The notes beneath the pieces are model-generated. The model was given only the letters and a program-made list of their open reading frames with translations, was not told the origin of the DNA and made no database searches. A program made the translations under genes and the position numbers. A stretch of DNA of 64,000 nucleotides from Terriglobia bacterium. GTDB lineage: Bacteria > Acidobacteriota > Terriglobia > 2-12-FULL-54-10. Shown here piece by piece: positions 38,361-55,150 of the stretch. Position 1 is the first letter of the stretch. Every line of letters begins with the position of its first letter. Location of the stretch: contig CAXVYR010000004.1 in NCBI GenBank assembly GCA_963666975.2, positions 2,112,001 to 2,176,000 on the forward strand. The letters are read 5' to 3'.

Positions 38361-40592
38361 ATGAGTGTTAGACCAAACCGAAGGTTCTTGCGCAGCAATT
38401 GGAACGTTATTGCCACGCTGACCGTTATTACTCTGATTGCCGTGTGGATCGTATTTCCGAATGGGGGGAACCTCTCGGGAGCATCTGCGAAGGGTCGTTC
38501 CTCTTGGTGGCCGCAGACGGGGGGGCCGCAGTTGATATCCGTGCAGCCATTCCCTGAAATGGAGGGAGCCATCTGCGAATGGGTGCCGGCCAGCGCTTCG
38601 GGAAACGACACCCTCGCCGCCTCTTTTCGTCCTGCAGCCTTGCTGAACCATGCGTTGCAAGGCGCGGCACAAAGCGCCCCGGATGGTGTAAGAACCGCCA
38701 CCGAGATTGAACGCGCGCCGCTGCGGGTCATCCGGGACACCTACCCGACATACAGCGCCATCGCCGTCGACACCACCTCTAATGAAGTGTACATGCAGGA
38801 TGAGAACCTGTTCGGCTTGAAGGTGTTCAACCGTCTGGACAACACTCCGCCGAACGCCGCATTTACCGAGCCGAAGCGAGTGATTTCCGGTCCAAACACG
38901 AAGCTCGAGTTTAATTGCGGCCTGTATATAGACCAGAAGACGGGCGACGTCTATTCAGTGAACAACGACACTATGGACACCTTGACGGTGTTCGCTCGCG
39001 GGGCCAGCGGAAATGCGACGCCCAAACGGGCGCTCCACACTCCGCACGGAACCTACGGAATCGCCGTAAACGAGGCCGTGCAGGAACTGTTCCTCACCAT
39101 CGAGCACATCAACGCCGTGGTGGTGTACCGGAAGCTGGCCGACGGGGAGGAAAAGCCGCTGCGGACGCTGCGCGGGCTTCAGACTCAACTGGAGGACCCG
39201 CACGGGATCGCCGTGGACGCGAAAAACAAGTGGCTGTTCGTCGGCAACCACGGCAACCATAAACTGAGCGAGGCTCCCTGGACGGGGCGGTTTGAGCCTC
39301 CCGCGATCACGGTTTATCCGCTGGAAGCCAGCGGCGACACCGCTCCGCTGCGGGTGATCGAAGGTCCCAAGACTCAATTGAACTGGCCGTCAGCGATGTT
39401 TATCGACGAGGAGCGCCAGGAGCTGTACGTAGCCAACGATGTGGGCGACTCCATCCTGGTTTTCCGCAGCACCGACAGCGGGAACGTGGCTCCCATCCGG
39501 ATCGTCAAAGGTCCGCAAACGCAGATCAAAAACCCCACCGGCGTGTTTGTAGATTTGAAAAACGACGAGCTCTGGGCCTCCAACATGGGAAACCACCGCG
39601 CGGTGGTATTCCCCCGCTCGGCGAACGGCAACGTCGCGCCGCTGCGCGTCATCCGGAGCGCCCCGGCGGAAAAGATGGCCCTGGCCATCGGCAATCCCGG
39701 CGCTGCCGCCTATGACAGCAAACGCGAAGAGATTCTGGTTCCCAACTGAGTGGCCCACCCGCAAATTGCGATCTTCGCCAGGCTGGCGAAAGAAAATTCC
39801 AAGCCCACCCGTTTGCTTTCCGGCCAGGCAACACGGCTGGCCCGCACCATGCACGACATCCGCTATGACGCGATCCACGATGAAATAATCGTGCCGAACC
39901 CTTTCGCACAAGCGATCCTGGTTTTCCGGGGAGGCGCCGACGGCGAAGAAGCGCCGATTCGCATCATTCAGGGGCCCCATACGCTGTTGCAGGGAACGGG
40001 CGCGGCGGCGGGCGGAGTGGACCGCCTGGACGTCGATCCGGTCCACGATGAAATCTTCGTCCCCGCCGGGGAAAAGATTTTGGTGTATCCGCGGACGGGC
40101 AACGGCGACGTGCCACCGTTGCGGGTCATCGAAGGCCCCGACACCACGCTCTACAGAGCGCAAGCGATTGCCGTGGACCCGGTTCATAACGTCATCGTGG
40201 CCGGCACGCACAGGAGTTACAACAACGGTCAGGGGGCCCTGCTGATCTTCAACCGCACCGACAACGGAAACGTCAGGCCCTCCAGAATCATCATGGGACC
40301 GAAGGCGGAGATCGGCAATATGAACCAGATTTTGATCCATCCGCCCAAGGGCTGGATCGTGGCGGCACAGACGGGAAACTCCTACGGGGTGCTGGAGCCG
40401 GAAGGCGTCTATGTCGGCGTCTGGAGCATCTACGACGACGGCGACGTTCCCGCGCGCTGGAAGCTCGCCGGAGATAAGAGCCTCATTAAGAAGCCGCGCG
40501 GGATCGCGCTGAACCCCAAGAACAAAGAGCTGATCGTCGCCGACATGCGGCTCAATGCGATGTTGACGTTTTACTTCCCGGAGATTTTTTAG
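38361..40592 (+). CDS. Exported multi-blade beta-propeller (NHL/YVTN-like), probably one 743-aa protein with in-frame TGA (Sec?) at 39747-39749
   Basis: ORFs 38361-39749 and 39750-40592 are contiguous and in frame; the junction lies inside a repeat; same TGA in the paralog. Confidence 0.8.
39774..39790 (+). promoter_or_regulatory. Candidate bacterial SECIS / recoding hairpin
   Basis: TTCGCCA-GGC-TGGCGAA perfect stem; loop begins 31 nt after TGA; identical in the paralog. Confidence 0.7.
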
Positions 40593-40824: not shown

Positions 40825-40988
40825 GTTTTTTCGGATACGGTCTTAGAAGAACATATGTTTGGCGGAACTATGTTTGATGGGTGGGCGGCCTAAAAAATGC
40901 GGACAGTCCCGACATTTCATTTCCTTGACACGAATCGTCTCTTGTGTTCGAACCTAGCCACCCGATCATCGGAGGACGCGTGAACACC

Positions 40989-42203
40989 ATGAAATCCAGC
41001 CGCCGGCGTTTCTTGAAGGATGGCGCCATACTGACCGGTTTGGTCGCCGGGACAGTGCAATCTGCAAGCGGACAAACGCCCGGCCCCGAGGAAGCCGCCC
41101 ATCGCTCGGCTGGCTTTGTGCGCGCGATTGGCGAGCGATCACGTCTTGAAACCTCGGCACGCGCGTGGTCTGATTCTTCCACGGGCCGCGTGACTTCGTC
41201 GCTGACTCCGCTGCAAAACTCCAAAGGAATGATCACGCCTTCGATGCTTCATTTTGAACGCCACCACGCGCGTGTCCCGGACATCGACCCCCGTCAGTAT
41301 CGTCTCCTGATCCACGGCCTGGTGGATCGCCCGCTGATTTTTACAGTGGCGGAGTTGGAGCGCCTGCCTTCCGTATCGCGGATCTATTTCCTCGAATGCT
41401 CGGGCAATAGCCGCAATCCGGGCCGGGGAAACGCGGAGACAGTCCAGGGAACCCACGGCATGACCAGTTGCAGCGAATGGACGGGGGTCCCGCTGTCCCT
41501 GTTGCTCCAAGAGGCGGGGGTGCAAAAGGGGGCAAGCTGGCTGGTGGCGGAGGGCGCAGACGCAGCCAAAATGACGCGGAGCATTCCGCTCACGAAGGCC
41601 ATGGACGACATTCTGGTGGCCTACGGGCAAAATGGCGGGGCGCTTCGTCCTGAGCAGGGCTACCCGTTGCGGCTGCTGATCCCCGGATGGGAAGGAAACA
41701 TCAGCATCAAGTGGCTGCGGCAAATCAAGGTGGTGGACCAGCCCTATATGACAAGAGAAGAAACCTCCCGCTACACCGACCTGATGCCGGATGGCCGCGC
41801 GCGCCAGTTCACTTTTGAGATGGACGCTAAATCAGTCATCACATTTCCTTCCGGCGGACAGAATCTGCCGGGCCCCGGATTCTACGAAATCACGGGCCTG
41901 GCTTGGTCCGGCAGAGGCGCAATCCGCAGGGTGGAAGTATCCACCGACGGCGGCGCGTCCTGGCAGGACGCCCAGCTTCAGGAGCCGGTACTGCGATTCG
42001 CGCATACCCGGTTTCGCTTCGCCTGGAAATGGGACGGCGGCGAGGCCGTGGTCCAGTCCCGCTGCATCGATGAGCAGGGTGGGGTTCAGCCGACCGTGGA
42101 CGATCTGATCCGGGTCCGGGGAAGGAGCTATAATTATCACTCCAACCACATTCAAGCCTGGAAGATCAACCGTAATGGAAGCGTGCAAAATGCGCTGGTC
42201 TGA
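40989..42203 (+). CDS. soxC: Tat-exported sulfite oxidase-family molybdoenzyme (SoxC/SorA-like)
   Basis: SRRRFLK Tat motif; LHFERHH, FLECSGN, EQGYPLRL, IKWL, GLAWSG. Confidence 0.88.
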   Translation: MKSSRRRFLKDGAILTGLVAGTVQSASGQTPGPEEAAHRSAGFVRAIGERSRLETSARAWSDSSTGRVTSSLTPLQNSKGMITPSMLHFERHHARVPDIDPRQYRLLIHGLVDRPLIFTVAELERLPSVSRIYFLECSGNSRNPGRGNAETVQGTHGMTSCSEWTGVPLSLLLQEAGVQKGASWLVAEGADAAKMTRSIPLTKAMDDILVAYGQNGGALRPEQGYPLRLLIPGWEGNISIKWLRQIKVVDQPYMTREETSRYTDLMPDGRARQFTFEMDAKSVITFPSGGQNLPGPGFYEITGLAWSGRGAIRRVEVSTDGGASWQDAQLQEPVLRFAHTRFRFAWKWDGGEAVVQSRCIDEQGGVQPTVDDLIRVRGRSYNYHSNHIQAWKINRNGSVQNALV

Positions 42204-42744
42204 TCTTTTGATCCCGGCAGTTTTCTTGGTTGTCTGCGCCGCGGCGCAGGCGCAGTCGCCCGCCTATGGCGTGGGCAGAACGCCGAGCGCCAAAGCAATT
42301 CGTGCGTGGGACATCGCCATTGGACCCGAGGGAAAGGAACTTCCGCCAGGAAAAGGAACCGCGAAAGAAGGCGCCACGATCTACGCACAGCGGTGTGCGG
42401 CGTGCCACGGGCAGACGGGAACGGAAGGACCGTTCAGCCGCTTAGTGGGCGGCCAAGGAACACTGAACACCAATCGCCCTGTAAAGACGGTTGGAAGCTA
42501 CTGGCCATTTGCCACGACGATATGGGATTACATCAACCGCGCCATGCCCGACGATAAACCGGGATCGCTGAGCGCAGACCAAGTTTACGCGGTGACGGCG
42601 TTTCTCCTCTACCGGAATGGCATCATCCAGGAAAGCGACGTAATCGACGCCAAAAGTTTGCCGAAAATCCAAATGCCGAATCGCAATGGATTTGTTTCCG
42701 ATCCACGGCCGGATTGGAAAACGCCGTCTGGCGGTCGTAACTGA
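42190..42744 (+). CDS. soxD: Monoheme cytochrome c (SoxD-like)
   Basis: Signal peptide; WDIAIGPEG, CAACH, GSYWPFATTIWDYINRAMP, MPNRNGF. Confidence 0.88.
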   Translation: MRWSDLLIPAVFLVVCAAAQAQSPAYGVGRTPSAKAIRAWDIAIGPEGKELPPGKGTAKEGATIYAQRCAACHGQTGTEGPFSRLVGGQGTLNTNRPVKTVGSYWPFATTIWDYINRAMPDDKPGSLSADQVYAVTAFLLYRNGIIQESDVIDAKSLPKIQMPNRNGFVSDPRPDWKTPSGGRN

Positions 42745-42801: not shown

Positions 42802-43887
42802 TTGCTTATAAATCCATCCGAGCCGCGAGACGAAAAGAAAACCCTCGAGCAATTCGACGCGGAATTAGCAAAGCTCCATATGCGCGGCCAGTGGAAGGCC
42901 GATGAACTGCTGGTCCAAACGATAGGCGGGCCGAAACCGGGAGGGAGCCCTTGCGTCTGGAAATGGTCCGCAGTCCATCCGCTGCTGCTGGAAGCGTGCG
43001 ATGTGCTGCCGGAAAGTTTCACGGCCCGACGTCACCTAGGCTTTATAAATCCCGGGCTGGAGCGGGGAGGAGCCACCCACACCATCCGCATGGGGCTGCA
43101 AATGGTGAGGCCGGGGGAGATCGCATGGGCTCACCGGCACACCATCGCAGCGCTTCGCTTTGTGGTCGCAGGGAGCAATCAGGCATACACCGTCGTCGAT
43201 GGCGAGGTCTGCCCCATGGAAAACTACGATTTGATTCTGACCCCGCAGTGGAGCTGGCACGATCATCACAACGAAAGCGGCGAAAACATCATCTGGCTGG
43301 ACGTTCTCGACGCCTCGTTGATTGCCTCGCTGAACGCAACGTTCTACGAGCCGTACGGGGAAAAACGCCAGCAAGTGAGGCGGTCCGGTGAGGAAGGCTT
43401 CCTTCCGGAGCGGGCAGGAGCCCAGCAACTGCCGCTGCGATACCCGTGGAGCGAAGCGGAGAAGCTGCTTGAAAAAATGGCGCACCTGGAAGGAAGCTCT
43501 TACGACGGTCTCTCCCTGGAGTATGTGAACCCCATGACGGGCGGCCCTGCGCTGCCGACACTGGGGTGCCGGGTGCAGATGTTGCGGCCGGGGGAGAGCA
43601 CGCAGGCTCACCGGCACATCTCGAGCGCCGTTTATTTTGTGGTGCGAGGAGAAGGCGAAACCGTTGTGGGAGACGAGCGGCTGGAATGGAACCGGCACGA
43701 TTCCTTTGCCGTCCCCAATTGGAGCTGGCACCGGCACATCAACCGCTCGAAGACGGACGCAGCCATTCTGTTCTCCGTAAACGATACTCCCGTATTTCAG
43801 GCGCTCGGTTTATACCGGGAAGAGCCGGAGAATTCCTTGCAACAGGCGGCGGCTCCCTTAGCGCCCGCTCCATTAGCAGGTTGTTGA
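42802..43887 (+). CDS. Gentisate 1,2-dioxygenase-like bicupin
   Basis: AHRHT, WSWHDHHN, AHRH, NWSWHRH cupin motifs. Confidence 0.88.
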   Translation: MLINPSEPRDEKKTLEQFDAELAKLHMRGQWKADELLVQTIGGPKPGGSPCVWKWSAVHPLLLEACDVLPESFTARRHLGFINPGLERGGATHTIRMGLQMVRPGEIAWAHRHTIAALRFVVAGSNQAYTVVDGEVCPMENYDLILTPQWSWHDHHNESGENIIWLDVLDASLIASLNATFYEPYGEKRQQVRRSGEEGFLPERAGAQQLPLRYPWSEAEKLLEKMAHLEGSSYDGLSLEYVNPMTGGPALPTLGCRVQMLRPGESTQAHRHISSAVYFVVRGEGETVVGDERLEWNRHDSFAVPNWSWHRHINRSKTDAAILFSVNDTPVFQALGLYREEPENSLQQAAAPLAPAPLAGC

Positions 43888-44107
43888 AAAACACCCTTTG
43901 TCCGCTCCCTCACGGGGTCCCCAACGCGCTGCTTTCAGCGCGATGGGGTGTCTCACGACCGCAGCTTGGAATCGGCCTGCTGATTGGGCTGCACTGACCG
44001 AGCCGCGCGCGCCTGTCCCGCCTGCCCTGCCTGCCCTGAGCGAAGCCGAAGGGAGCGAAGCCGAGGGATTAGCAAGCGGACCCTTACACCAGTTTTTCAA
44101 CAACCTC
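43877..44107. mobile_element. MITE with terminal IR AGGTTGTTGAAAAAC carrying REP repeats
   Basis: IRs at 43878-43892 and 44092-44106; solo ends at about 30091-30105 and 37106-37120. Confidence 0.75.
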
Positions 44108-44118
44108 TTAGGGACGCA

Positions 44119-44262
44119 TATGGCGGAAGACCCAGAAGCTCTCCAAAATTTGGACCTCCCGACGCTGACCGTCCGGGGACTGGCGAAGGAGTTTAGCCCC
44201 GGCATGATCTTGATGATGACCGGCATCGGAACCAGTCATTTGATCACCGCGCCGGTAGCGGC
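44119..44262 (+). pseudogene. N-terminal fragment of an Nramp-like transporter
   Basis: FSPGMILMMTGIGTSHLITAP resembles Nramp/SLC11-like TM1; truncated. Confidence 0.55.
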
Positions 44263-44614
44263 ATCCCGAGCATCGGCGGATGCGGCAGAAATTGCGAGCC
44301 CCAGCAGGGCGAGCCATTTATCAGCGGCGCAAAGCAATCGTGGAACCGGTGATCGGAGTCTTGAAAGAACAACGTGGAATGCGACAGTTCCGGCGTCGGG
44401 GTCTGACAAAGGTTGCGGTCGAACTGGCTCTGGCTGCCACCGCCTTCAACTTCACACGCCTGCGGCACGCAAACCCGGCGCTGCAGTGTGCGCGCTAAGC
44501 GCGGGGAAGCTGGCACGACCGATTTTGTCGGAACTGAATACTGTAAATTCATAGGCCTATATCTCAAAACCGGCAACTCGTTTCGCAAAAGTGGTTCCGT
44601 TTTCACACAGACTC
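44263..44614 (+). mobile_element. 3' remnant of an IS1182-family element
   Basis: YQRRKAIVEPVIGVLK...FRRRGL...AFNF C-terminal motif (44280-44498); possible end TTTCACACAGACTC. Confidence 0.7.
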
Positions 44615-44732: not shown

Positions 44733-47594
44733 ATGAAACGAAAAAGATATCTGCTTAGCCTTGCTCTTTTTGCCGCTGCTTTGTTGGTTCCGAACTTCCA
44801 CGTTGTTGCGGCCACCTTATCCGGCACAATTTCGGACACCGAAGGGGCCACCGTCGCCGGGGCTCAAATCATCGTCCGGCAGCCCGATACAGATTTCTCC
44901 GAGATGGTGCTGACGGAAGAAGACGGAAGCTATTTTCTGGAATCGCTTCCTCCGGGAGTTTATACCGTTACCGTTAGAAAATCGGGGTATGCCGACCTGA
45001 CTCAGGGACGAGTCACTGCCGGCGACCCGGCGGAACCCGTGCGGCTGAACCTGCGGCTACAGTCCAGCCAGGAACAAACTACGGTCCGGGCAACCGAGGA
45101 ACTGAATCCCAACATCTTTATCGTGAAGCTGGATACAAATGAAATAAACAGAAATTTGGACAAGCGGGGAGCCAACATTCAATTCCTCCGGGAGTTTCGG
45201 TCGCAGGAGAATAATTACGGAGCAATGTACGGCCACCCGCTGCGGAGGGCAGATTTGCTCCGGCCCAGATCGCCGCTGAGGAACTTCCACGGCTCCCTGT
45301 ACAATTCGCATCAGAACAGCGCCCTCAACGCCCGCTCTTTTTTCACCGTGGGCAGCCTCAGGCCGTCCCGGCGAAATCAGTACGGGGCTACGTTGGGTGG
45401 GCCCCTCTTCAGCGACAAGCTGTCTTTCGATTTCGCCTGGAGCCAGACCCGGGATTCCGGGTTTGTGAATGGAAACGTTCAGGTGCCCCTGGAGAGCGAA
45501 AGGACTCCTCGCTCTTCGGACCCGCAGGTGAACGCCGTCATCGCGAGACTGCTCGAAGGATTTCCCGGAGACCTTCCCAACCTTCCGGACGTCAGCCCGC
45601 GTCAACTGAATACGAATGCGCTTCGGGACATCCGCAGAACGGCCTTTTCCACCCGGCTGGATTACCGGCCCGGCGAGGCGGATCAAATCGCCTTTGAGCA
45701 AAGGTTTTTGGATGCGACCGAGGTGCCGTTTGAAATCGTAGCCGGGCAAAACCCGGATACTTTTCTCCGGCCGCAGAGCACCCATCTGACGCACACCCAC
45801 ACTTTCTCTCCCAATACTCTCTCCCGGCTCTCCGTTGATTTTGACCGCCTGGCGGTTGTGCTCAATATTACGGACCGGTATAGAAATCTGCTCGCCCCGT
45901 TGGGAATTGACGTGGTTCCGGAATATGCTTTCGGCCAAGAAATCTCGGCGCTGGGGAGCGGGGGCCGTGGGTCGAGCCTTCCCCGCAGGCGAGTGGAGAA
46001 TCGGTTTTCTTTTGCTCCGGAAGTAACCCGCGTCCTCGGAAAACACACTCTTTCAGCCGGATTCCGAATCACCCGGTTGCGAATTAATGATCTGCAAAGC
46101 GATAACTCCCGAGGCCAGTTTTCCTTCACCCGGGACTTCGGTCGCTCCGCCGTGGAGAATTTCCTGCACGGAACACCCACCTCGTTTACGATTGCCCTCG
46201 GAGATCTCTATCGCGGATTTCGCAACTGGGAAAACGCCTTCTATTTGCAGGACACCATCCGGGCCAGTTCCCGCTGGACGCTTTCGCTCGGACTGCGATA
46301 CGAAATGGTGACGGCGCCGAACGAGGTGAACGGCCTCACTTCGATTGCCTACTCGACCGACGCCAATAACTTCGCTCCGCAGTTCGGTTTCGCATGGAAT
46401 CCAGGCGGGGGGAAGACGGTCGTGCGCGGCGGCTATGGGATTGCCTTCGGGTCCGTCTTTCCGATCCTCTACCAGCGGGCGCGCTTTAACCCGCCCGAAG
46501 TGCAGGTGATCAAAATTGATAATCCTGACCTGCTTAATCCTTTGGGCGGCGCCGCCGAAGTGAAGAGATCAGAGTTGAATCTGCTGAGTCCGGACTTGGT
46601 GGCTCCCTACTCGCACATGTATAACTTCGGCATCGAGCGAGAACTGCCGGCGAATCTGTTTTTCCGGATCGGATATATCGGGAGCCGCACGTTCAAATTG
46701 CCAACCCGTGCCATCTCCAACCGGGCCCAGCCGGTTCCGGGACTCTGCGAGGAGCGGGAGGGTTTCCCTTTTCTTTGGTGCGGGACGAATACGACCAACC
46801 TCAGGCGGCCTGATCAGCGGTTCGCACAGATCTCAACCGTCACGAGCGGCGGCATTAGCTATTTTGACGGCCTGCAGGTTGCCGTGGACAAGCGCATGGG
46901 CCGGGGATTGACCTGGAATGCCCGCTACACATTCAGCAAGGCCATTACCACTTCAGATACGCATTTTGCACAGATCGGAACAGGCTTCCACAACAGCACC
47001 ATTGAGGACGTCTTCGGCGACCTGAGAGGGCTCGCGCGGTTTGACACTCCGCACGCGCTGACGCTCGGCTACCGGTTTGAGCTTCCCTGGGCGCGCAACC
47101 AGCGAGGAATCCGGTCCCTGCTGCTGGGTGGATGGAACATTTCCGGGACGACCACCTTCCGATCGGGCACTCCCACCCACGCGCATACCGGTTCGGATTC
47201 TCCCGGCTTTGGAAACGCGGACGGAGTGGGCGGGGACAGGCCAAACCTGCTGAACCCTGCGATTCTTTGGAAGAGCGTGGATCACCCGGATACCGCCCGC
47301 TTCATCTTGGCCAAGGAAAATTTCGATACGATCATCCCGCCGGGAGGGCGGGGGAATCTTGGCTATCAGACTTTCCGGAACGACGGCACGCATAATTGGA
47401 ATATCGCCGTCGCGAAGGATTTCCCTGCCGGGGAAACGGGCACTTTTCAACTTCGCACCGAGTTTCTCAACTCCTTCAACCAGCCGCAATTTGACGAAGC
47501 GAGGCACGTGATATCCGCAGACACCTTCGGAAGAATCCTGAATACGTCAAACAAGGGACGCGTCATCCAGATCATGCTGCAATTTCGCATGTAA
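44733..47594 (+). CDS. Oar-type TonB-dependent receptor with carboxypeptidase-regulatory-like N-domain
   Basis: Signal peptide; GTISD..GATVAGA; RRNQYGATLGGP; LRTEFLNSFNQPQF. Confidence 0.9.
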   Translation: MKRKRYLLSLALFAAALLVPNFHVVAATLSGTISDTEGATVAGAQIIVRQPDTDFSEMVLTEEDGSYFLESLPPGVYTVTVRKSGYADLTQGRVTAGDPAEPVRLNLRLQSSQEQTTVRATEELNPNIFIVKLDTNEINRNLDKRGANIQFLREFRSQENNYGAMYGHPLRRADLLRPRSPLRNFHGSLYNSHQNSALNARSFFTVGSLRPSRRNQYGATLGGPLFSDKLSFDFAWSQTRDSGFVNGNVQVPLESERTPRSSDPQVNAVIARLLEGFPGDLPNLPDVSPRQLNTNALRDIRRTAFSTRLDYRPGEADQIAFEQRFLDATEVPFEIVAGQNPDTFLRPQSTHLTHTHTFSPNTLSRLSVDFDRLAVVLNITDRYRNLLAPLGIDVVPEYAFGQEISALGSGGRGSSLPRRRVENRFSFAPEVTRVLGKHTLSAGFRITRLRINDLQSDNSRGQFSFTRDFGRSAVENFLHGTPTSFTIALGDLYRGFRNWENAFYLQDTIRASSRWTLSLGLRYEMVTAPNEVNGLTSIAYSTDANNFAPQFGFAWNPGGGKTVVRGGYGIAFGSVFPILYQRARFNPPEVQVIKIDNPDLLNPLGGAAEVKRSELNLLSPDLVAPYSHMYNFGIERELPANLFFRIGYIGSRTFKLPTRAISNRAQPVPGLCEEREGFPFLWCGTNTTNLRRPDQRFAQISTVTSGGISYFDGLQVAVDKRMGRGLTWNARYTFSKAITTSDTHFAQIGTGFHNSTIEDVFGDLRGLARFDTPHALTLGYRFELPWARNQRGIRSLLLGGWNISGTTTFRSGTPTHAHTGSDSPGFGNADGVGGDRPNLLNPAILWKSVDHPDTARFILAKENFDTIIPPGGRGNLGYQTFRNDGTHNWNIAVAKDFPAGETGTFQLRTEFLNSFNQPQFDEARHVISADTFGRILNTSNKGRVIQIMLQFRM

Positions 47595-47629: not shown

Positions 47630-47926
47630 TAAAGCAAATTCATGGTTGCTGTATAGCTTCCCAGAACGCTCGTGAAGCCCCAGAGGGGCGCAAGAGTTTA
47701 GCCCACGGCGCCAGCCGTGGGTGGGAAAGGCCACGCCGGATCAGCCCCGGAAGAGCCTGCCCTGAGCTTGCCGAAGGGGGCGAAAGAAGAGGGCCGGAGC
47801 GTCTTTCGCCCCTCTGGGGCTTGAGGTAATATCGGTCCCCGTTGTCCCAGGGCTTACGCCCTGGGTTAGATTCTGCCGCCCTTGCAGGGCTGTGAAGCAC
47901 TCTACACCAACTCTGAAATTGGTCTG
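47630..47926. repeat. MITE-like element with a REP hairpin cluster
   Basis: Ends TAAAGCAAATTCATGGTTGCTGTA and TACACCAACTCTGAAATTGGTCTG; hairpins CCCACGGC..GCCGTGGG and CCCAGGGC..GCCCTGGG. Confidence 0.7.
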
Positions 47927-48070
47927 GAGCAGCAGTTTCACAGTAGCTGTATAGCAATCCGAGATGTCATTCCGAGGGTTGAAGGCTTTTCGGCCCGAGG
48001 AATCTGCTTGAAAAGCGGTTTCAGGTTCTGGAAACGAGCCCGCCGCGCCTCCCCTTGCATGCCGCTGTTT

Positions 48071-49969
48071 CTAATAATCGTAGGCCGGCTTATTTTCATA
48101 GGTAATTTGAATGCCGGCAGGCTGCTTCCCAAGCTCCGGGGCATAGTCCTCGTGCAGAAAAACCACATTGCCTCCGACAACCGTCATCAACGGATAGGTG
48201 TTGGCAATTTCGTCCACCGGCTGCACGGTGAAGTAGTCCTGGTTCAAGACCAGGAAATCAGCCAGTTTGCCCGGCTCCAGCGTCCCGATCCGGTCCTCCC
48301 GCAACATGTAATAGGAAGGCCAGGAGGTCATCATCTTCATCAGAATTTCCCGTTCCACGGCCTCGTCCGGCGCAACCATATATCCCTTGTGATTCTTCCG
48401 GGTGATCAGCGGAACCGCATCATAAAAGTAGGTGGTGCTGTTCGTGCCCCGCACGCCGGCTTCGTTTTCAAAGACCACCCTGACCCCGCCCTCCAACAAA
48501 CTGCGGATGGGGGAAATCCACTTCTGATACTGCATCCCGTACAGCTCCAGCCAGGGATAGGTCCGGTCCAAAACGTTTCCGCCACAACTGATGATCATCC
48601 CCAGCCGGGCCATGCGGGGGATCTGGTCGGGACGGGGATAGAGCCCGCAGTGATCCGAGCTGAAGCGCCGCGAGCGGACATAGTCCAGGGTGATGCTGGG
48701 CTCCTCGCGCATCGCCCTTTCGATGGAGTCCATAAAGTAATCGACGCCCCGGTCGGCGTAGGCGTGTCCCAGAGAGACCCGCTCCCTGGAGACGAGAGCG
48801 GCGTAGATACCTTCTGCCTGCGAAGTCCCCGGAGCATTTTTGCAATACTCCCGTTTCTTGATCTCCGGGCGGGACGGGATCGAGGAGCAGAACATGGGCG
48901 GGCCGTCGTCAATGTTGCCCACGCCTGCTCCTGTAGTCCAAAAGTAGTCGCTGCCCATGCCCGCCATATCGCCCAGACGGCGGTAAAAACTGGCCGGGTC
49001 CGGATTGTTCTGGAAGCCGAAGTAGTGAGTGTAGGCAAAGCGGACCGGCATTCTGTCCTGGCTCTCCAGCAGCCGGTAGGCATCCATAAAGCGCAGACCC
49101 ATCAGGTGCGAGGTGAAGGTCGTGATTCCGACCGCGGCGTTTTTCAGCAGTCCGTCCCGGACGACATCAGCCAGTTCCGGAATGTGGTCTTTGAAGTATC
49201 CGTCCACCACCAGGGCCCGGCCGTAGAGCACCAGTCCCCCCTGCTGGTTCTCGTCCATCTCCTCGTTTTCACCCATCGGCGGCTCAAATCCGTAGAGGTC
49301 CACGATGGCCTGCTTGGCCGCGTCGTTAATCATGTAGGCCGGGTGGGCCGCGATGAAGACGGGAACTTCCGGTGACAGGCTGTTGAGATAGCTGACCGCC
49401 ATTTTGTGGTCCTGCACGTACTTCACGCCGGGCCCCATGCCGGAACCGCCGTCTTCCGTGTTCAGATAGAGAAACGCCCACTGGCCTTCCGGAGCGTTGC
49501 CCATGCTCTCCTTCAGCGCTACCTCGATTCCCCGCGTAATCTCCTCGTCGGTTTTCCCGCCAACGAAAAACAGCCGGGAATATCTGTCTATGATCTCTGG
49601 ATTGTCCTCAATCCAGTTCTGCACTTCGCGGTTGTGGATGTGGGTGTGAGAATCAATGATTCCCGGAATTACCGTGTGCCCGCCGAGATCGATGCGTTCC
49701 GTATTGGGCCCGGCCAGAGACAGGATCTCGTCGTTGCTGCCGATCTCGAAGATTTCATCGCCGCGAATCGCCATGGCCTCGACGATGGCGCCGAGGTTGG
49801 TCGTGGTCGACTCATCATCCATGGTCACAATCTTGCCGTTATAGACAATCAGGCTCGGGTAGGTCACCAGCTTTCGCGGAACCGTAACCGAATCCTGCGC
49901 GCTAAGGAAAGCGGCCATAGAGAACACCACGAGGACCGCCAAGACCAATCGGGCAGCATATTTCATCAC
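48071..49969 (-). CDS. Secreted amidohydrolase_3 protein
   Basis: Signal peptide; IPGIIDSHTH; GTLEPGKLADF. Confidence 0.9.
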   Translation of the reverse strand: MMKYAARLVLAVLVVFSMAAFLSAQDSVTVPRKLVTYPSLIVYNGKIVTMDDESTTTNLGAIVEAMAIRGDEIFEIGSNDEILSLAGPNTERIDLGGHTVIPGIIDSHTHIHNREVQNWIEDNPEIIDRYSRLFFVGGKTDEEITRGIEVALKESMGNAPEGQWAFLYLNTEDGGSGMGPGVKYVQDHKMAVSYLNSLSPEVPVFIAAHPAYMINDAAKQAIVDLYGFEPPMGENEEMDENQQGGLVLYGRALVVDGYFKDHIPELADVVRDGLLKNAAVGITTFTSHLMGLRFMDAYRLLESQDRMPVRFAYTHYFGFQNNPDPASFYRRLGDMAGMGSDYFWTTGAGVGNIDDGPPMFCSSIPSRPEIKKREYCKNAPGTSQAEGIYAALVSRERVSLGHAYADRGVDYFMDSIERAMREEPSITLDYVRSRRFSSDHCGLYPRPDQIPRMARLGMIISCGGNVLDRTYPWLELYGMQYQKWISPIRSLLEGGVRVVFENEAGVRGTNSTTYFYDAVPLITRKNHKGYMVAPDEAVEREILMKMMTSWPSYYMLREDRIGTLEPGKLADFLVLNQDYFTVQPVDEIANTYPLMTVVGGNVVFLHEDYAPELGKQPAGIQITYENKPAYDY

Positions 49970-50156
49970 TCATCTCCCTCCTTACGAAGGCATACTCTTC
50001 ACAGAGACTCAAAGTTTAGAGAAGTATTCGCTAGTGCAATAGCTCCGCTATTGCGCTGACTAAAATGAACCTGCAATCGAAAACAGCGGCCAGTCAACCC
50101 TTTGGGGGGCTCTTTCGTATCCGTTATCCCTGGCAAACAAACTACCCAACCATCGC

Positions 50157-50987
50157 TTACCCAACCACCGCCGAGAACAAGGGGATGGGTTCAATTCGCT
50201 GCTGGCGGAAATCCTGCTCGAACTGTTCCATCTCGGTAGGCGTCAGCGGATGGAGAAACTGTTCGTTTCGCTGCCGCAACTCCTGCACGTGGAGGCCGAC
50301 GACCTTCTGCCTGGCTTCTTCCAACGCTTCGAGCGGCGGGGCGGCCCGGGCCAGCTTCGGAATCATCTCCGAACCGTGGTGCAGCTCATCGGCGGCAACA
50401 CCGCGTTCATGCTTGGTGATGCGGTCGGAAAATTCATCGGTCACAGGAAGCTGCCCCATGACGTAGTGGAAGCCGACGGCGGCCCCTTCCCGGTTCATCA
50501 TGATGACGTCCCGGAGCCACTGCGAGCTTGCCTCGCGGGCCAGCTTGGCGCCCAAGTCAAAGTAGCCGTAATGCTCCGGCCAAAGAGCTTTTTTCATCCC
50601 CGGACCCGGCGCAAAGGCGTCGGAAACGTCTCCATACCCCCACATTTCCGGCACCTCGCAGGGCTTGCCATCCAAGTACCAGTTGAGAATCCGCATGTAA
50701 CCAAAATAATGTTCTGCCTCCTCAAAGCTGTCGGTGCTCGACTTCTGGATACTCTCGAGCGGCTCCATGTTTTTAGCCTTGCGGAACATCATGCCAGAGT
50801 GGAAAACCATCGCGCCGTATTCTTTGGTGGTCTGCAAAGCCAGCCAGTTCACGTCCCGGTCCCGATTCCTCCGCTCCGAGTACGCCAGAGCCAGCCGCTT
50901 CGCAGCCCCCGTGTAGCGCTCGATCATCCTCGCCAGTTCCTCGCGGACAAACTTTTCGTCCATCTCATTCTTTCTATCCAGCGCCAT
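50157..50987 (-). CDS. Ferritin-like / di-iron four-helix-bundle protein of unknown function
   Basis: KE...EEAEH...REG...DELHH carboxylate/ExxH pattern; GGAAGGT RBS. Confidence 0.7.
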   Translation of the reverse strand: MALDRKNEMDEKFVREELARMIERYTGAAKRLALAYSERRNRDRDVNWLALQTTKEYGAMVFHSGMMFRKAKNMEPLESIQKSSTDSFEEAEHYFGYMRILNWYLDGKPCEVPEMWGYGDVSDAFAPGPGMKKALWPEHYGYFDLGAKLAREASSQWLRDVIMMNREGAAVGFHYVMGQLPVTDEFSDRITKHERGVAADELHHGSEMIPKLARAAPPLEALEEARQKVVGLHVQELRQRNEQFLHPLTPTEMEQFEQDFRQQRIEPIPLFSAVVG

Positions 50988-51046
50988 ATCGCACCTTCCT
51001 GAGAGCTTTAGTCGGTTTCTAGGGACTTCGGTCTAGTCTCCGCCCT

Positions 51047-53281
51047 TCAAAAAATCTCCGGGAAATAATACGTCAGCACGGAGTTGAGCCTCATGTCCGC
51101 CACGATGATCTCTTTGGTCCTCGGATTCAAGGCCACGCCGCGAGGTCTTTCAATCGTGCTTTGGGGTCCGCCGATCTTCCACCGTGCGGGAATATCGCCG
51201 TGATCGCGAATGCTCCAGACACCGATAAAAGCGCCCTCCGGCGTCGCCGCCGCCCAGTCGGTGGATTGAGGAATGATGATCCAGCCGCGGGGCGGATAGA
51301 CCTGGATCTGCTCCACGATGGAGATTTCTGTCGCAGGCCCGCGAATGATGCCTCGCGGCTGCACATTGCCATTGTCGGTGCGGTTGAAGATCAGCAGGGC
51401 CCCGCTTCCCCTGCCGCCTCCGTATTCGGTGAGCTTATTGAGCCCCACCACCACCACGTCGTTGACCGGATCAACCGCGACGCTGTTGGCGTTGCGCAAT
51501 TGGGTCGCGGGACCTCGGATCACCCGGATGGGGGCAACATTCCCATTCGCTTCCCTGGGGAAGACCAGTACTGAATCCCGGTTGGGGACGAATATTTCAT
51601 TGTTGATCGGGTCCACGTCCAGCCGGTCCGGCCTCTTCAACTGGGTGCGGGAACCCTGAATGATCCGGATCGGCGCCTCTTCCCCTGTAGCTCCGCCTCG
51701 GAATGTCAGAATCGTCTGGCCGAACTGATTCGGCACCAGGATTTCATCATGAACCGCATCATAGCGGATATCGTGCATGGTTCGTGCCAGCAGCGTCTTT
51801 TGTCCTGCCAGCAATCGATGGGCGGTTGCTGTCCCGTTCGCCAGCCTGGCGAAGGCCGCAATCTGCGGATGGGCCACTCAGTTGGGCACCAGAAGCTCAT
51901 CCCGCTTGGAGTCATAGGCCACACCCCCCGGATTGCCGATCGCCATCGCCACTTTTCCGAGCGGCGCACTGCGGATGGTGCGCAGCGGCGCGGCATTCCC
52001 GTTCGCCGTGCGCCGGTAAATGGTGGCCGAATGGTTGCCCATATTGGAGACCACCACCTCGTCGTTTTTGTTGTCCACATAAATGCCGGTGGGGTTTCGC
52101 AGGCCGGTTGCGGAACCTTCGAGGACCCGGAGAGGCGCTACGTTGCCGCTATCGGTCGCGCGGAAGACCAGGATCGAATCCGCTCCGTCATTGGCGACAA
52201 ACAGTTCCCCGTGCTCCCGGTCCAGATAGATTTGTCCCGGCCAGTTCAACTGCGTCCGGGAGCCTTGGATGACCCGCAACGGTGCGGCGTCTCCGCTGGC
52301 GGTCCGCTCGTGCACGGTGATCGAGGGAGGCAGTGTTTTTCCGCTGCCCGGCACCGCCCTGCTTCGAGTCAGCGGCCAGTTCTCCCGGCCGGGATTCCCG
52401 GCGTCCTCCCGCACTTGATGAACCGAGCCGTGATTGGCCACAAAGATCCAATCATTCTCCGGGTCCACGGCAATCCCATGAGGATCGGCGAGACCGGCAC
52501 GATCCCCCTGGATGAGGCGGATCGGGCCGTCTTCCCCTTGCGCCATCTTGGGATAAACCACCACGGCGCTGTCGTGCTCCACCGTCAGAAACATTTCCTG
52601 GTTTTCTTCGTCCACTGCGATGCCGTAGGTTCCGTGCGGAGTGTGAAGTTCGCGGTCGGGAGGAACGTCGCCCCGCGCCTGGCGGGAAAAGATGACCAAT
52701 GTATCCATGGTGTCGTTGTTGACCGAATAGATGTCCCCATTTGCCGGATCCACATAGAGCCCGCAGTTAAACTCCACCTTGGTCCTGTGCCCGCCGATTA
52801 CGCGCTTCGGCTCGGTCATAGTAGCTGTCGGCGGAGTATTGGCCTCTCGGTCATACACCATGATTTGGAAGAGGTTCTCGTCCTGCAGAATGATCTCATC
52901 CCTCACAGGATCAACGGCCACGGCGCTGAAGGTTGGATAAGTATCCTTGATCGCCCGCACGGGAGCGCGGTCGGCGTCGATGGAAGCTCCCCCGTCATTG
53001 GCGTTCTCTGCGAACACTCGCTCCTGCCGCAGAGCAGCCACCAGCCGGCTCTGCGAACTGGCCGGAACCCACTCGCACATGGCGCTGCCAGCGGCGGGCA
53101 TGGGCTCAACCGAGACCAGTTGAGCGAAGCCCGAGGGTCTCCGCAGAGCCGCCTGGGAGCTCGCCTGGAAAGCAGGCTGCTCCGTGTCCCCGGCTGAAAT
53201 GATCCATCCGGCGCTAACGGCCATTGCAGCGAGAATCGCAATGACACCCGGACGCCATCCAGATTGGTTGCTACGCGGCAT
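51047..53281 (-). CDS. Exported beta-propeller paralog 2, probably one 744-aa protein with in-frame TGA (Sec?) at 51878-51880
   Basis: ORFs 51878-53281 and 51047-51877 are contiguous and in frame; DELLVPN-TGA-VAHPQIAAFARLA. Confidence 0.8.
51837..51853 (-). promoter_or_regulatory. Candidate bacterial SECIS / recoding hairpin (paralog 2)
   Basis: Minus strand TTCGCCAGGCTGGCGAA; same sequence and spacing as 39774-39790. Confidence 0.7.
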
Positions 53282-53731: not shown

Positions 53732-55150
53732 CTATACAATTCCGATCAGGGGCCAATACACCGTTACCAGCAAGAACAGAAGAACCCAGTCCACGACCAG
53801 GAAGAATGCAGCAAACTTCAACACGTCCCGGGAGCCATAACAGCCAAATGTATAGCCGGCAATCAATACGAGCGACTGATAGATGAAAAGCTTTCCGCTG
53901 GCGGAAAAACTCCAGATCATACCCACCGCCAGCGGATTCAAGTTATTGTTCACGGCATAATCCATCACCACCGGCAAGGTGACGGCGATGTTGGCGGTCT
54001 GGGAGGCCAGCAGGAGGTGCGAGACAAAAGCAAGCCAATAGAGGACCAGCGCGGAATGCGATACTTCCTGCAAATAGGGAGCTATGTGCCGGAACACGCC
54101 ATCGGCCATCAGCTGCAGCATCTGTGTATCGCGCAACGCGCCGCCCATGCTGATCGTCGCGCCCATGAAGATGAAGATGAAGAAGTTGATTTTTTTTGTA
54201 TTCTCCGCGGTCAAGACCCCGATGCCGGGCAGAGTCGCCGCCAGACCGACTCCCAGCCCCACCATCGCCGGGCTGATGTGGTGCAGCATATCCGTGGCCC
54301 AGATCGCGATGGCGATTGAGGTCAGAATAGCGGCCCGCTTTTCCTTCCCGCTCCAGGGGCCCAGAAGCTGCAACTGCTCCCGCAGGAACTCCCTTCCTCC
54401 GGGCAACTCCTTTTTCTCCGGAGGGTACAGACGCAGCACCAGCCACCAGACCGCAACCGTATAAAAGATATCCAGCGGCAAATACGCAATGAACCACTGG
54501 CTCCAGTACACGGGCACATTGCCGTGTTCAATGATTAAAGACCGCGCCAGGATGGCGGGCGTGCTGCCGATGATGCACTTGTCAAATAGGGTGGCGCAAA
54601 AGACAACCGCCAGCATCATGCCTTTGGCGACATTGCTCTTCCGGTCCAATCCAAAGCTGGATACCACGCCCATGACGATCGTGCCGAGCAAAATCACACG
54701 GGGCGGCCCCGCCGGAACCAGGAAGGTCAGCACAAAATCAGTGAGGATAAAGGCGAGCAGGATGTTTGAAAAAGAGGTGCCCACACGGGAGAGAATCGTA
54801 AAGGCGAGCCGCCGGGCCAGTCCGCTTTCGGTTACCATGGCGGCGATGAAAAGCGCTCCCAGCAGGAACCAGGGCGCCTCGCTGGTGAAGCCGCTAAACG
54901 CGATGCGGGAGGGAACCACCTGGAGAGCCCAGAACAGCCAGCAGCCGAGCAAGCCCGTCATGGCATGGGGAATCACCTCCCCGATCCAGAAGATCACCAT
55001 GAAACAGGTGATCGCCAGGGCGTGCTGGGGGCGCGGATCCAGCGGCAACGGCGCAAACCATAAAACTGCAAGCGTGAGAACGCCCAGGGCCGCCCCAGCA
55101 AGCTTTCCCTTCGGCATCGGAACCGATTCGTTGACTGCTTCGCCGGTCAC
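53732..55150 (-). CDS. SLC13/DASS-family anion/dicarboxylate transporter
   Basis: Many TM segments; AFSGF, ESGLARRLA, WSGKEKRA motifs. Confidence 0.88.
   Translation of the reverse strand: MTGEAVNESVPMPKGKLAGAALGVLTLAVLWFAPLPLDPRPQHALAITCFMVIFWIGEVIPHAMTGLLGCWLFWALQVVPSRIAFSGFTSEAPWFLLGALFIAAMVTESGLARRLAFTILSRVGTSFSNILLAFILTDFVLTFLVPAGPPRVILLGTIVMGVVSSFGLDRKSNVAKGMMLAVVFCATLFDKCIIGSTPAILARSLIIEHGNVPVYWSQWFIAYLPLDIFYTVAVWWLVLRLYPPEKKELPGGREFLREQLQLLGPWSGKEKRAAILTSIAIAIWATDMLHHISPAMVGLGVGLAATLPGIGVLTAENTKKINFFIFIFMGATISMGGALRDTQMLQLMADGVFRHIAPYLQEVSHSALVLYWLAFVSHLLLASQTANIAVTLPVVMDYAVNNNLNPLAVGMIWSFSASGKLFIYQSLVLIAGYTFGCYGSRDVLKFAAFFLVVDWVLLFLLVTVYWPLIGIV

Follow-up and report, generated by a model that had tools for sequence, protein, structure and literature searches.

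A gene of 743 codons at positions 38361–40592 (+) of a 64,000-nucleotide stretch of a Terriglobia bacterium genome (assembly GCA_963666975.2, contig CAXVYR010000004.1, positions 2,112,001–2,176,000; hereafter, the window) contains an in-frame UGA codon. By all available computational criteria, this is one gene in which UGA is very probably read as selenocysteine (Sec) by the standard bacterial mechanism, and its product, a predicted anchored or exported tandem six-bladed NHL-type beta-propeller, apparently represents a large, undescribed selenoprotein family, unusual in its beta-propeller fold and in having 9–27 Sec-encoding paralogs per genome. The gene (copy 1) appears as two open reading frames (ORFs): 38361–39749 (+) is closed by TGA at 39747–39749, and 39750–40592 (+) follows directly in the same frame and is terminated by TAG at 40590–40592. 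With the TGA translated as U, the product has 743 residues and reads ...YDSKREEILVPN-U-VAHPQIAIFAR... across the junction, the Sec being residue 463. The two called ORFs are therefore one frame parted only by TGA, as proposed in the initial annotation, which had suggested a new selenoprotein family. A diverged paralog (copy 2; 58% identity, 744 codons) lies at 51047–53281 (-) and, as had also been observed there, carries TGA at the same site (51878–51880 (-); U468 in PN-U-VAHPQ). Copy 2 and two further paralogs terminate at TGA, indicating that this codon has not been reassigned genome-wide.

The window genome (G000; 4.23 Mb in 4 contigs, 98.9% complete) encodes nine paralogs, each of which has exactly one in-frame TGA and reads PN-U-VAHPQIA. 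Their C-terminal parts are 54–76% identical, and the frame offsets or spacers that the initial annotation had watched for at the junction are absent from all of them. Among the 149 distinct junctions collected from all fetched loci, 132 have TGA, 15 TGC and two TGT, and none has TAA or TAG. The presence of TGA in all nine paralogs and in 132 of 149 junctions places the observation far beyond chance. Furthermore, when residues 380–743 were searched against 5.8 billion proteins, many uninterrupted matches of 620–796 residues were retrieved. Cys occupies the TGA column in 119 of the 120 full-length database homologs listed and Trp in the remaining one (P0003), and the Sec/Cys column is invariant in the 85 rows of protein alignment A1. 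The prediction that this column would hold TGA or Cys, never TAA or TAG, is thus borne out by the 132 TGA and 17 Cys codons and by the database homologs alike. In a FastTree phylogeny of 92 Sec-form and 121 Cys-form proteins, the two forms interleave across all major clades with at least 15 state changes; sampling of the tree is uneven (fetched DNA is the source of the Sec forms, whereas protein databases supplied most Cys forms), and the direction and frequency of change are not readable from it.

One copy in the window genome would suit the view that these genes are pseudogenes, or that the stop is a sequencing or assembly error without function. The ninth paralog (L027; C4:2003473–2005033) is truncated and frameshifted: its middle blades are missing, the remaining two parts are out of frame, and it is probably a pseudogene. 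It keeps the TGA together with the downstream hairpin described below, the latter in a compensated UUUGCCA/UGGCAAA variant, and its junction is identical to that of an intact gene (L033) in genome G001. The other eight paralogs are full-length two-part frames without any other lesion, and 132 distinct genes, drawn from numerous genomes and metagenomes, share this TGA. Moreover, relative to a 91%-identical ortholog in genome G002, the ratio of nonsynonymous to synonymous substitution rates (dN/dS) is 0.24 upstream (461 codons) and 0.11 downstream (280 codons) of the TGA, and the latter value implies that the region past the TGA is translated in this frame. The TGA region of copy 1 is also unchanged in Logan contigs from two DNA studies, so that the TGA is no assembly error. 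Pseudogenes or errors are thereby effectively refuted as the explanation, and we assign them a negligible probability. In the Logan contigs of the two DNA runs, the summed depth over window positions 39711–39785 is 76x and 32x, compared to ~8x and ~6x elsewhere, and the contigs break at 39742–39762; nucleotides around the UGA are common to many paralogs, which fragments short-read assembly.

Gene callers annotate two ORFs here, and GTG follows the TGA in 126 of 130 distinct Sec-form sequences, which is what would be seen if translation stopped at UGA and restarted at the adjacent GUG (UGAGUG), yielding pieces of 462 and 280 residues that form a split propeller. However, no AGGAGG-like site was found by sequence inspection upstream of the GTG of copy 1, in line with the earlier remark that the downstream ORF has no evident ribosome-binding site. 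Furthermore, the cut would separate two strands of one blade: in the AlphaFold2 (AF2) model described below, the TGA falls between strands 457–462 and 468–473 of the same blade, as the initial annotation had deduced from the repeats. The residue following the site is Val in 78 and Ile in 7 of 85 aligned members and is equally conserved in uninterrupted Cys forms, so the GTG reflects the amino acid. Finally, two separate polypeptides would leave the exclusive use of TGA and the replacement by Cys unexplained, and we consider this arrangement highly improbable. GTG predominates in the Val codon (window 39750–39752) though it is unpaired in the RNA structures discussed below, and a context effect on UGA decoding is possible. 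The split itself, which had been anticipated for annotation pipelines, is evident in public gene calls: of the top 150 representatives clustered at 50% identity, no fewer than 24 align with their own last residue precisely at query residue 462, and 10 begin at 464–466. Similarly, the ESM Atlas neighbours of one Cys form include acidobacterial clusters of 431–504 and 273–303 residues, the sizes of the two halves.

A hairpin, UUCGCCA-GGC-UGGCGAA, starts 24 nt past the UGA of copy 1 (39774–39790 (+)), with a 7-bp stem and a GGN loop beginning 31 nt past the UGA, and the same element is present in copy 2 (51837–51853 (-)). Comparative evidence argues that it is a selenocysteine insertion sequence (SECIS). 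In a gapless alignment of the 130 distinct Sec-form sequences (A2), 98% of the cells of helix 28–34/38–44 are paired, and in three of its pairs both bases are replaced (CG by UA in 5 rows, GC by CG in 4, CG by AU in one row). A smaller first hairpin (39759–39771 (+); columns 13–16 with 22–25), which is less well supported and forms only 3 bp in copy 1, has 92.1% of its cells paired and two pairs changed on both sides; it is speculated that it might shorten the effective spacer. For both helices jointly, none of 500 column shuffles matches the observed values and slid controls pair 36–55% of cells, with the caveat that kinship alone can let sequences exceed shuffles without any structure. Some of the double changes require coordinated amino acid replacements (FARLA to FPRLG or FDRLS), which would be hard to explain without a hairpin. 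Moreover, loop position G35 is invariant, and synonymous third positions within the stems are nearly fixed (G15 and C33 in 130 of 130 rows, G39 in 129 and G24 in 126) or, in the case of C30 and G42, covary, whereas unpaired third positions vary (major allele in 42–102 of 130 rows). The Arg codon in the loop is the rare AGG in all nine window-genome paralogs, compared with 40 of 432 (9.3%) Arg codons elsewhere in those genes. The bacterial SECIS (bSECIS) model, as set out in section 5 of PMC13188914, has a loop of 3–9 nt with G at the first two positions, a stem of 4–16 bp, a distance of 16–37 nt from the UGA and a minimum free energy (MFE) of at most -7.5 kcal/mol. With its 3-nt loop (N1-G-G-N-N2), 7-bp stem and 31-nt spacing, the hairpin satisfies the model as given in that section, so that the suggested search for a downstream SECIS ends in agreement with four constraints of this published description. 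Its mean MFE is -11.3 kcal/mol (n=132), with 95% of sequences at or below -8 kcal/mol.

Consistent with Sec decoding, the window genome encodes the complete Sec machinery, the presence of which the initial annotation had proposed to check. Profile matches score 372 bits for selB (cut-off 242), 563 for selA (268) and 350 for selD (125), and tRNA-Sec (selC), with anticodon TCA, scores 72.8 bits. Among the family-bearing genomes, selA is found in 10 of 12; it was not found in G001 (95% complete) or G007 (78% complete), both of which have selB, G001 also having tRNA-Sec. Genome G148 likewise has selB and tRNA-Sec. Twenty-five of 27 genomes from other families of the class, all of them without the propeller family, also encode selA, which indicates that the Sec trait is older and more widespread than the propeller family. 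The selD gene of the window genome (C4:1360322–1361257) itself contains one in-frame TGA (...VKAAG-U-ASKLSP...), and a hairpin, GUCCAAA-GGU-UUUGGAC, starts 13 nt past it. As in the propeller genes, an in-frame UGA is combined in SelD with a 7-bp hairpin whose GGN loop is closed by A-U and which lies within the coding region; SelD differs in protein family, fold and cellular location, and the propeller family has 9–27 paralogs per genome. By contrast, a Sec-type formate dehydrogenase alpha subunit was not found in the window genome, the best TIGR01553 match scoring 78 bits (cut-off 814) without an internal stop. The chief users of Sec in this genome may thus be SelD and the propeller family.

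These data also bear on the idea that the UGA is read through without Sec, a near-cognate tRNA inserting, for instance, Trp or Cys while the hairpin only slows termination. Such readthrough would likewise account for a frame that is conserved before and after the TGA, and in one public gene call, P0003, the site does read W. However, the aligned residue is Cys in 119 of 120 homologs, and TGC or TGT takes the place of TGA in 17 + 2 genes, a signature of Sec/Cys exchange. Furthermore, the hairpin fits the SelB-type SECIS model, has an invariant loop G and is similar to the element in this genome's selD, and the genome has a complete Sec machinery. P0003 is a Joint Genome Institute (JGI) gene call of 725 residues with Trp at the Sec column, and it is most simply explained as a call made under a table with TGA as Trp, that is, as an annotation artefact hiding a Sec form. 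Readthrough without Sec is accordingly very improbable in our assessment, and decoding of the UGA as Sec is the reading favoured by junctions, Cys homologs, dN/dS, hairpin and Sec machinery alike. Under this reading, the hairpin UUCGCCA-GGN-UGGCGAA, inside the coding sequence and with its loop 31 nt past the UGA, would be a bacterial SECIS bringing SelB together with Sec-tRNA(Sec) to the ribosome, and selA, selB, selD and tRNA-Sec(UCA) are encoded in the genome.

Several observations weigh against Sec decoding or against the role assigned to the hairpin. In two metatranscriptome libraries, three short contigs flank the TGA on both sides and none spans it; these RNA-library contigs may represent DNA carry-over and say nothing on readthrough. 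When single sequences of the 60 nt past the UGA are folded, stability is no better than that of shuffles (z -0.79 and +0.06); these unremarkable scores mean that the case for the hairpin rests on comparative evidence. The hairpin codes for the conserved F-A-R-L-A, and its conservation is thus partly protein-driven. An Rfam scan of 39650–39900 at E<=10 gave no match, which is uninformative given the poor coverage of bacterial SECIS elements. In selD the loop lies 20 nt past the UGA as opposed to 31 nt in the propeller family, that is, 11 nt closer, and G001 carries ~23 TGA copies yet selA was not found in this 95% complete genome. Furthermore, 17 Cys-form genes for which DNA is available, close relatives of Sec forms, keep the hairpin with a mean of -9.0 kcal/mol, so the hairpin is not strictly Sec-specific. 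In these 17 genes early decay is visible, with AGA or CGA in place of AGG and uncompensated GCT or GCA, and their hairpin can be read as a fossil of recent Sec-to-Cys conversion. The hairpin is missing from two divergent Cys-form paralogs in genome G011 (-3.1 and -5.2 kcal/mol); F-P-R-L-A is still encoded in one, via CGC CTT. This pattern is consistent with decay of the SECIS after replacement of Sec by Cys, distant Cys-form DNA being represented by two genes.

In a set of 41 related genomes, the family-level group of the window genome has 13 other members, of which 11 carry the propeller family; it was found in none of the 27 genomes representing ten further families of the class. The 150 rows listed for the set include 147 with one TGA and one with a TGA plus a TAG; the two rows without TGA are both from G011 and have TGC instead. 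With the C-terminal part as query, 27 TGA-bearing copies are found in the complete single-contig genome G003 (3.8 Mb), ~23 in G001, ~17–21 in G009 and G012, and ~6 in G005. Named family-bearing records are metagenome-assembled genomes of Terriglobia or "Acidobacteria bacterium", some of which bear the label Candidatus Sulfopaludibacter or Solibacteraceae. An evenly drawn set of 300 additional Acidobacteriota genomes yielded a single one with a match at E<=1e-50, and it bears the TGA; the others have no match at that cut-off, which is no proof of absence.

The AF2 model, built with alignment A1, has a mean predicted local distance difference test (pLDDT) score of 87.7 and a predicted template modelling (pTM) score of 0.83. 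It consists of a helix (residues 14–30), a low-confidence tether (32–111) and twelve four-stranded blades. The helix falls within a hydrophobic N-terminal segment (residues 14–32; 38400–38456 (+)), either a signal anchor or a signal peptide, in agreement with the export or anchor segment that the initial annotation had seen upstream. A Tat signal (twin-arginine translocation) was considered as a family feature and rejected: copy 1 has RRFLRS and copy 2 has no RR. In a VIA-align comparison with 48,161 PDB representatives, each half of the model matches six-bladed NHL propellers, with propeller 1 matched over ~127–435 and propeller 2 over ~436–741, the latter closed by strand 115–125. The closest structures are Lin41, TRIM2 and TRIM71 (Z 29.0–29.4, root-mean-square deviation (rmsd) 2.4–2.5 Å over 259–263 residues), followed by NHLRC2, PknD, PAL and lactonases (Z 25–28). 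A Foldseek search of PDB with the whole model returned generic tandem WD/YWTD propellers only, with TM-scores of 0.25–0.35; neither comparison points to a function. The Pfam NHL family PF01436 is matched at 34.2 and 38.2 bits (cut-off 20). Sec463 is located in the turn between strands 457–462 and 468–473, that is, between strands 3 and 4 of blade 7, the first blade of propeller 2. R455, R495, H498, D507 and E508, all close to Sec463 in sequence, are invariant in A1, and in the following blade R495 and H498 substitute for the canonical P-x-G. From strand topology, we infer that both would share a face with the Sec turn.

Members typically contain just two or three cysteines. The initial annotation had pointed to those of CEWVPAS and EFNCGLY as conserved and had proposed the latter as a partner of Sec. 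Both are indeed present in the two window copies; in the family as a whole the CEW cysteine, C72 in the tether (codon 38574–38576 (+)), is conserved in 72 of the 74 rows that have a residue there and, in a separate count, in 70 of 73 Sec forms and 114 of 117 Cys forms, and is the only conserved cysteine besides the Sec/Cys site, whereas the EFNC residue, Cys186, is kept in only 12 of 85 aligned members. Cys186 is consequently rejected as the Sec partner, leaving C72 as the conserved second cysteine and a candidate resolving residue.

Based on these features, the family may tentatively be viewed as extracytoplasmic selenol-based oxidoreductases with a two-residue redox mechanism, a proposal to which we give somewhat less than even weight. 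The product would comprise an N-terminal anchor or signal, a flexible tether of ~80 residues carrying Cys72, and the two six-bladed NHL-type propellers. Sec463 would serve as the attacking nucleophile, with His498 and Arg495 activating it or binding the substrate, and Cys72 would resolve the selenenyl intermediate; paralogs might differ in substrate. Some findings speak against this functional proposal. The tether has pLDDT below 50, and strand topology is the basis for placing Sec463 near His498, Arg495 or Cys72. Clustering of 2064 flanking ORFs from 165 loci yielded no conserved neighbour gene and thus no functional hint. Alternatively, in a true selenoprotein, Sec could be a metal or metalloid ligand, or the nucleophile of a hydrolase or lyase, by analogy with further enzymes built on six-bladed propellers. 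Metal-dependent propeller enzymes (PAL, lactonases and phytase; Z 25–26) are among the closest folds, the Pfam lactonase profile is matched slightly above its cut-off (26.6 versus 21.7), and the invariant His and Arg are close in sequence; in the catalogue of PMC13188914, most selenoproteins are thought to be redox-active and metal-binding ones are also listed. However, a second family-wide cysteine on a flexible tether suits a redox cycle with a resolving cysteine, and a non-redox role, the leading alternative for function, would alter the functional part of our interpretation only and seems to us somewhat unlikely.

Besides family members and shadow ORFs, the sole recurrent neighbour is a TonB-dependent-receptor-like outer-membrane protein, found at 20 of the 165 loci. 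This association was dropped: the window genome has 38 such loci, and three of the nine propeller genes have one no more than 8 kb away, two of them sharing the same outer-membrane protein gene, which is about what chance would give. Immediately 3' of copy 1, a sulfite-oxidase-like molybdopterin oxidoreductase (Oxidored_molyb and Mo-co_dimer; 40944–42203 (+)) overlaps the start of a c-type cytochrome (42175–42744 (+)), the two forming a SorAB-like pair. Between or beside both copies are genes for a double-cupin protein (42802–43887 (+)), a CarboxypepD_reg/TonB-dependent-receptor-like outer-membrane protein (44733–47594 (+)) and a transporter of the Na+/sulfate-symporter family (53732–55150 (-)). 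The SorAB-like genes, the cupin and the sulfate symporter were rejected as functional clues, as they do not recur beside other copies. Four sizeable ORFs between the copies, 43898–44554, 47882–49375, 49406–50059 and 50250–51002 (all +), match no Pfam family at E<=0.001.

The propellers share their fold with the NHL domains of TRIM71/Lin41, TRIM2, Brat, NHLRC2, the PknD sensor domain and PAL (Z 26–29.4, rmsd 2.4–3.3 Å, 237–281 residues per propeller). However, sequence identity to these proteins is 13–22%, copy 1 differs from them by its tandem propellers and membrane anchor, and function is not transferable. To our knowledge, none of these NHL propeller proteins contains Sec. In public databases, fragments and homologs are named after beta-propeller lactonases or YncE (PF10282, PF08450, NF052280), or, in JGI, 'DNA-binding beta-propeller fold protein YncE' or '6-phosphogluconolactonase'. 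The match to the profile of lactonase family PF10282 is weak (26.6 and 33.8 bits; cut-off 21.7), and lactonase structures (Z ~25) are no better matched than non-enzymatic NHL domains. The YncE equivalog NF052280 is below threshold (17.6 and 12.2 bits, cut-off 400), and in contrast to the seven-bladed lactonases and YncE, the propellers modelled here are six-bladed. NCBIfam release 20.0 has no model for the family, the best match (17.6 bits) being far below its cut-off of 400, and no selenoprotein model in it matches.

The family shares Sec/Cys exchange among homologs and dependence on selA, selB, selC and selD with UGA-decoded bacterial selenoproteins in general. Table 1 of PMC13188914, a 2026 review, catalogues 119 prokaryotic selenoprotein families or subfamilies, which, as described there, likewise have a single Sec per protein and Cys homologs and were predicted by the same criteria. 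None of the families in that table is a propeller, NHL or PN-U-VAHPQ family, and a term search of the review gave no occurrence of "propeller", "NHL", "lactonase" or "Acidobacteri". Most of the catalogued families are thioredoxin-like or have CxxU/UxxC motifs, whereas the partner cysteine of the propeller family, if any, is 391 residues away. Full-text literature searches yielded no description of a propeller or NHL selenoprotein, or of selenoproteins from these acidobacterial genera; supplementary survey tables such as Table S2 of PMC12013277 lie outside that coverage and could list the family. The earlier statement that no described family of this kind was known is thus upheld for NCBIfam, for the tabulated part of the review and for the full-text searches. 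Whether this is the first beta-propeller selenoprotein family and, with 27 members in G003, the largest single-family selenoprotein expansion in any bacterium, an extracytoplasmic family that is the main Sec user of a lineage without Sec-type formate dehydrogenase and has a new kind of active site, in which a blade-turn Sec adjoins invariant His and Arg residues and is served by a tethered cysteine, is in our view evenly balanced.

In most of the selenoproteins catalogued in PMC13188914, a redox motif is combined with a thioredoxin-like fold. The set of folds known to employ selenium would grow by a membrane-anchored tandem NHL propeller that has a single Sec, and a new enzyme class would become available for characterisation. 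The largest bacterial selenoprotein gene set reported, according to PMC12013277, comprises 46 genes; 9–27 copies per genome would bring the selenoproteomes of these bacteria near to that number, with one family supplying most of the count. The expansion suggests that retention of the Sec trait in this lineage depends on the propeller family and not on formate dehydrogenase. Public gene calls split Sec-form members into "hypothetical/lactonase/YncE" fragments of ~430–500 and ~275 residues, and a family model with a Sec column would mend very many entries. It would also improve estimates of selenium demand for soil, peat and groundwater communities. If the interpretation is true, abundant soil and groundwater bacteria carry out selenium-dependent extracytoplasmic chemistry that is missed by current annotation.

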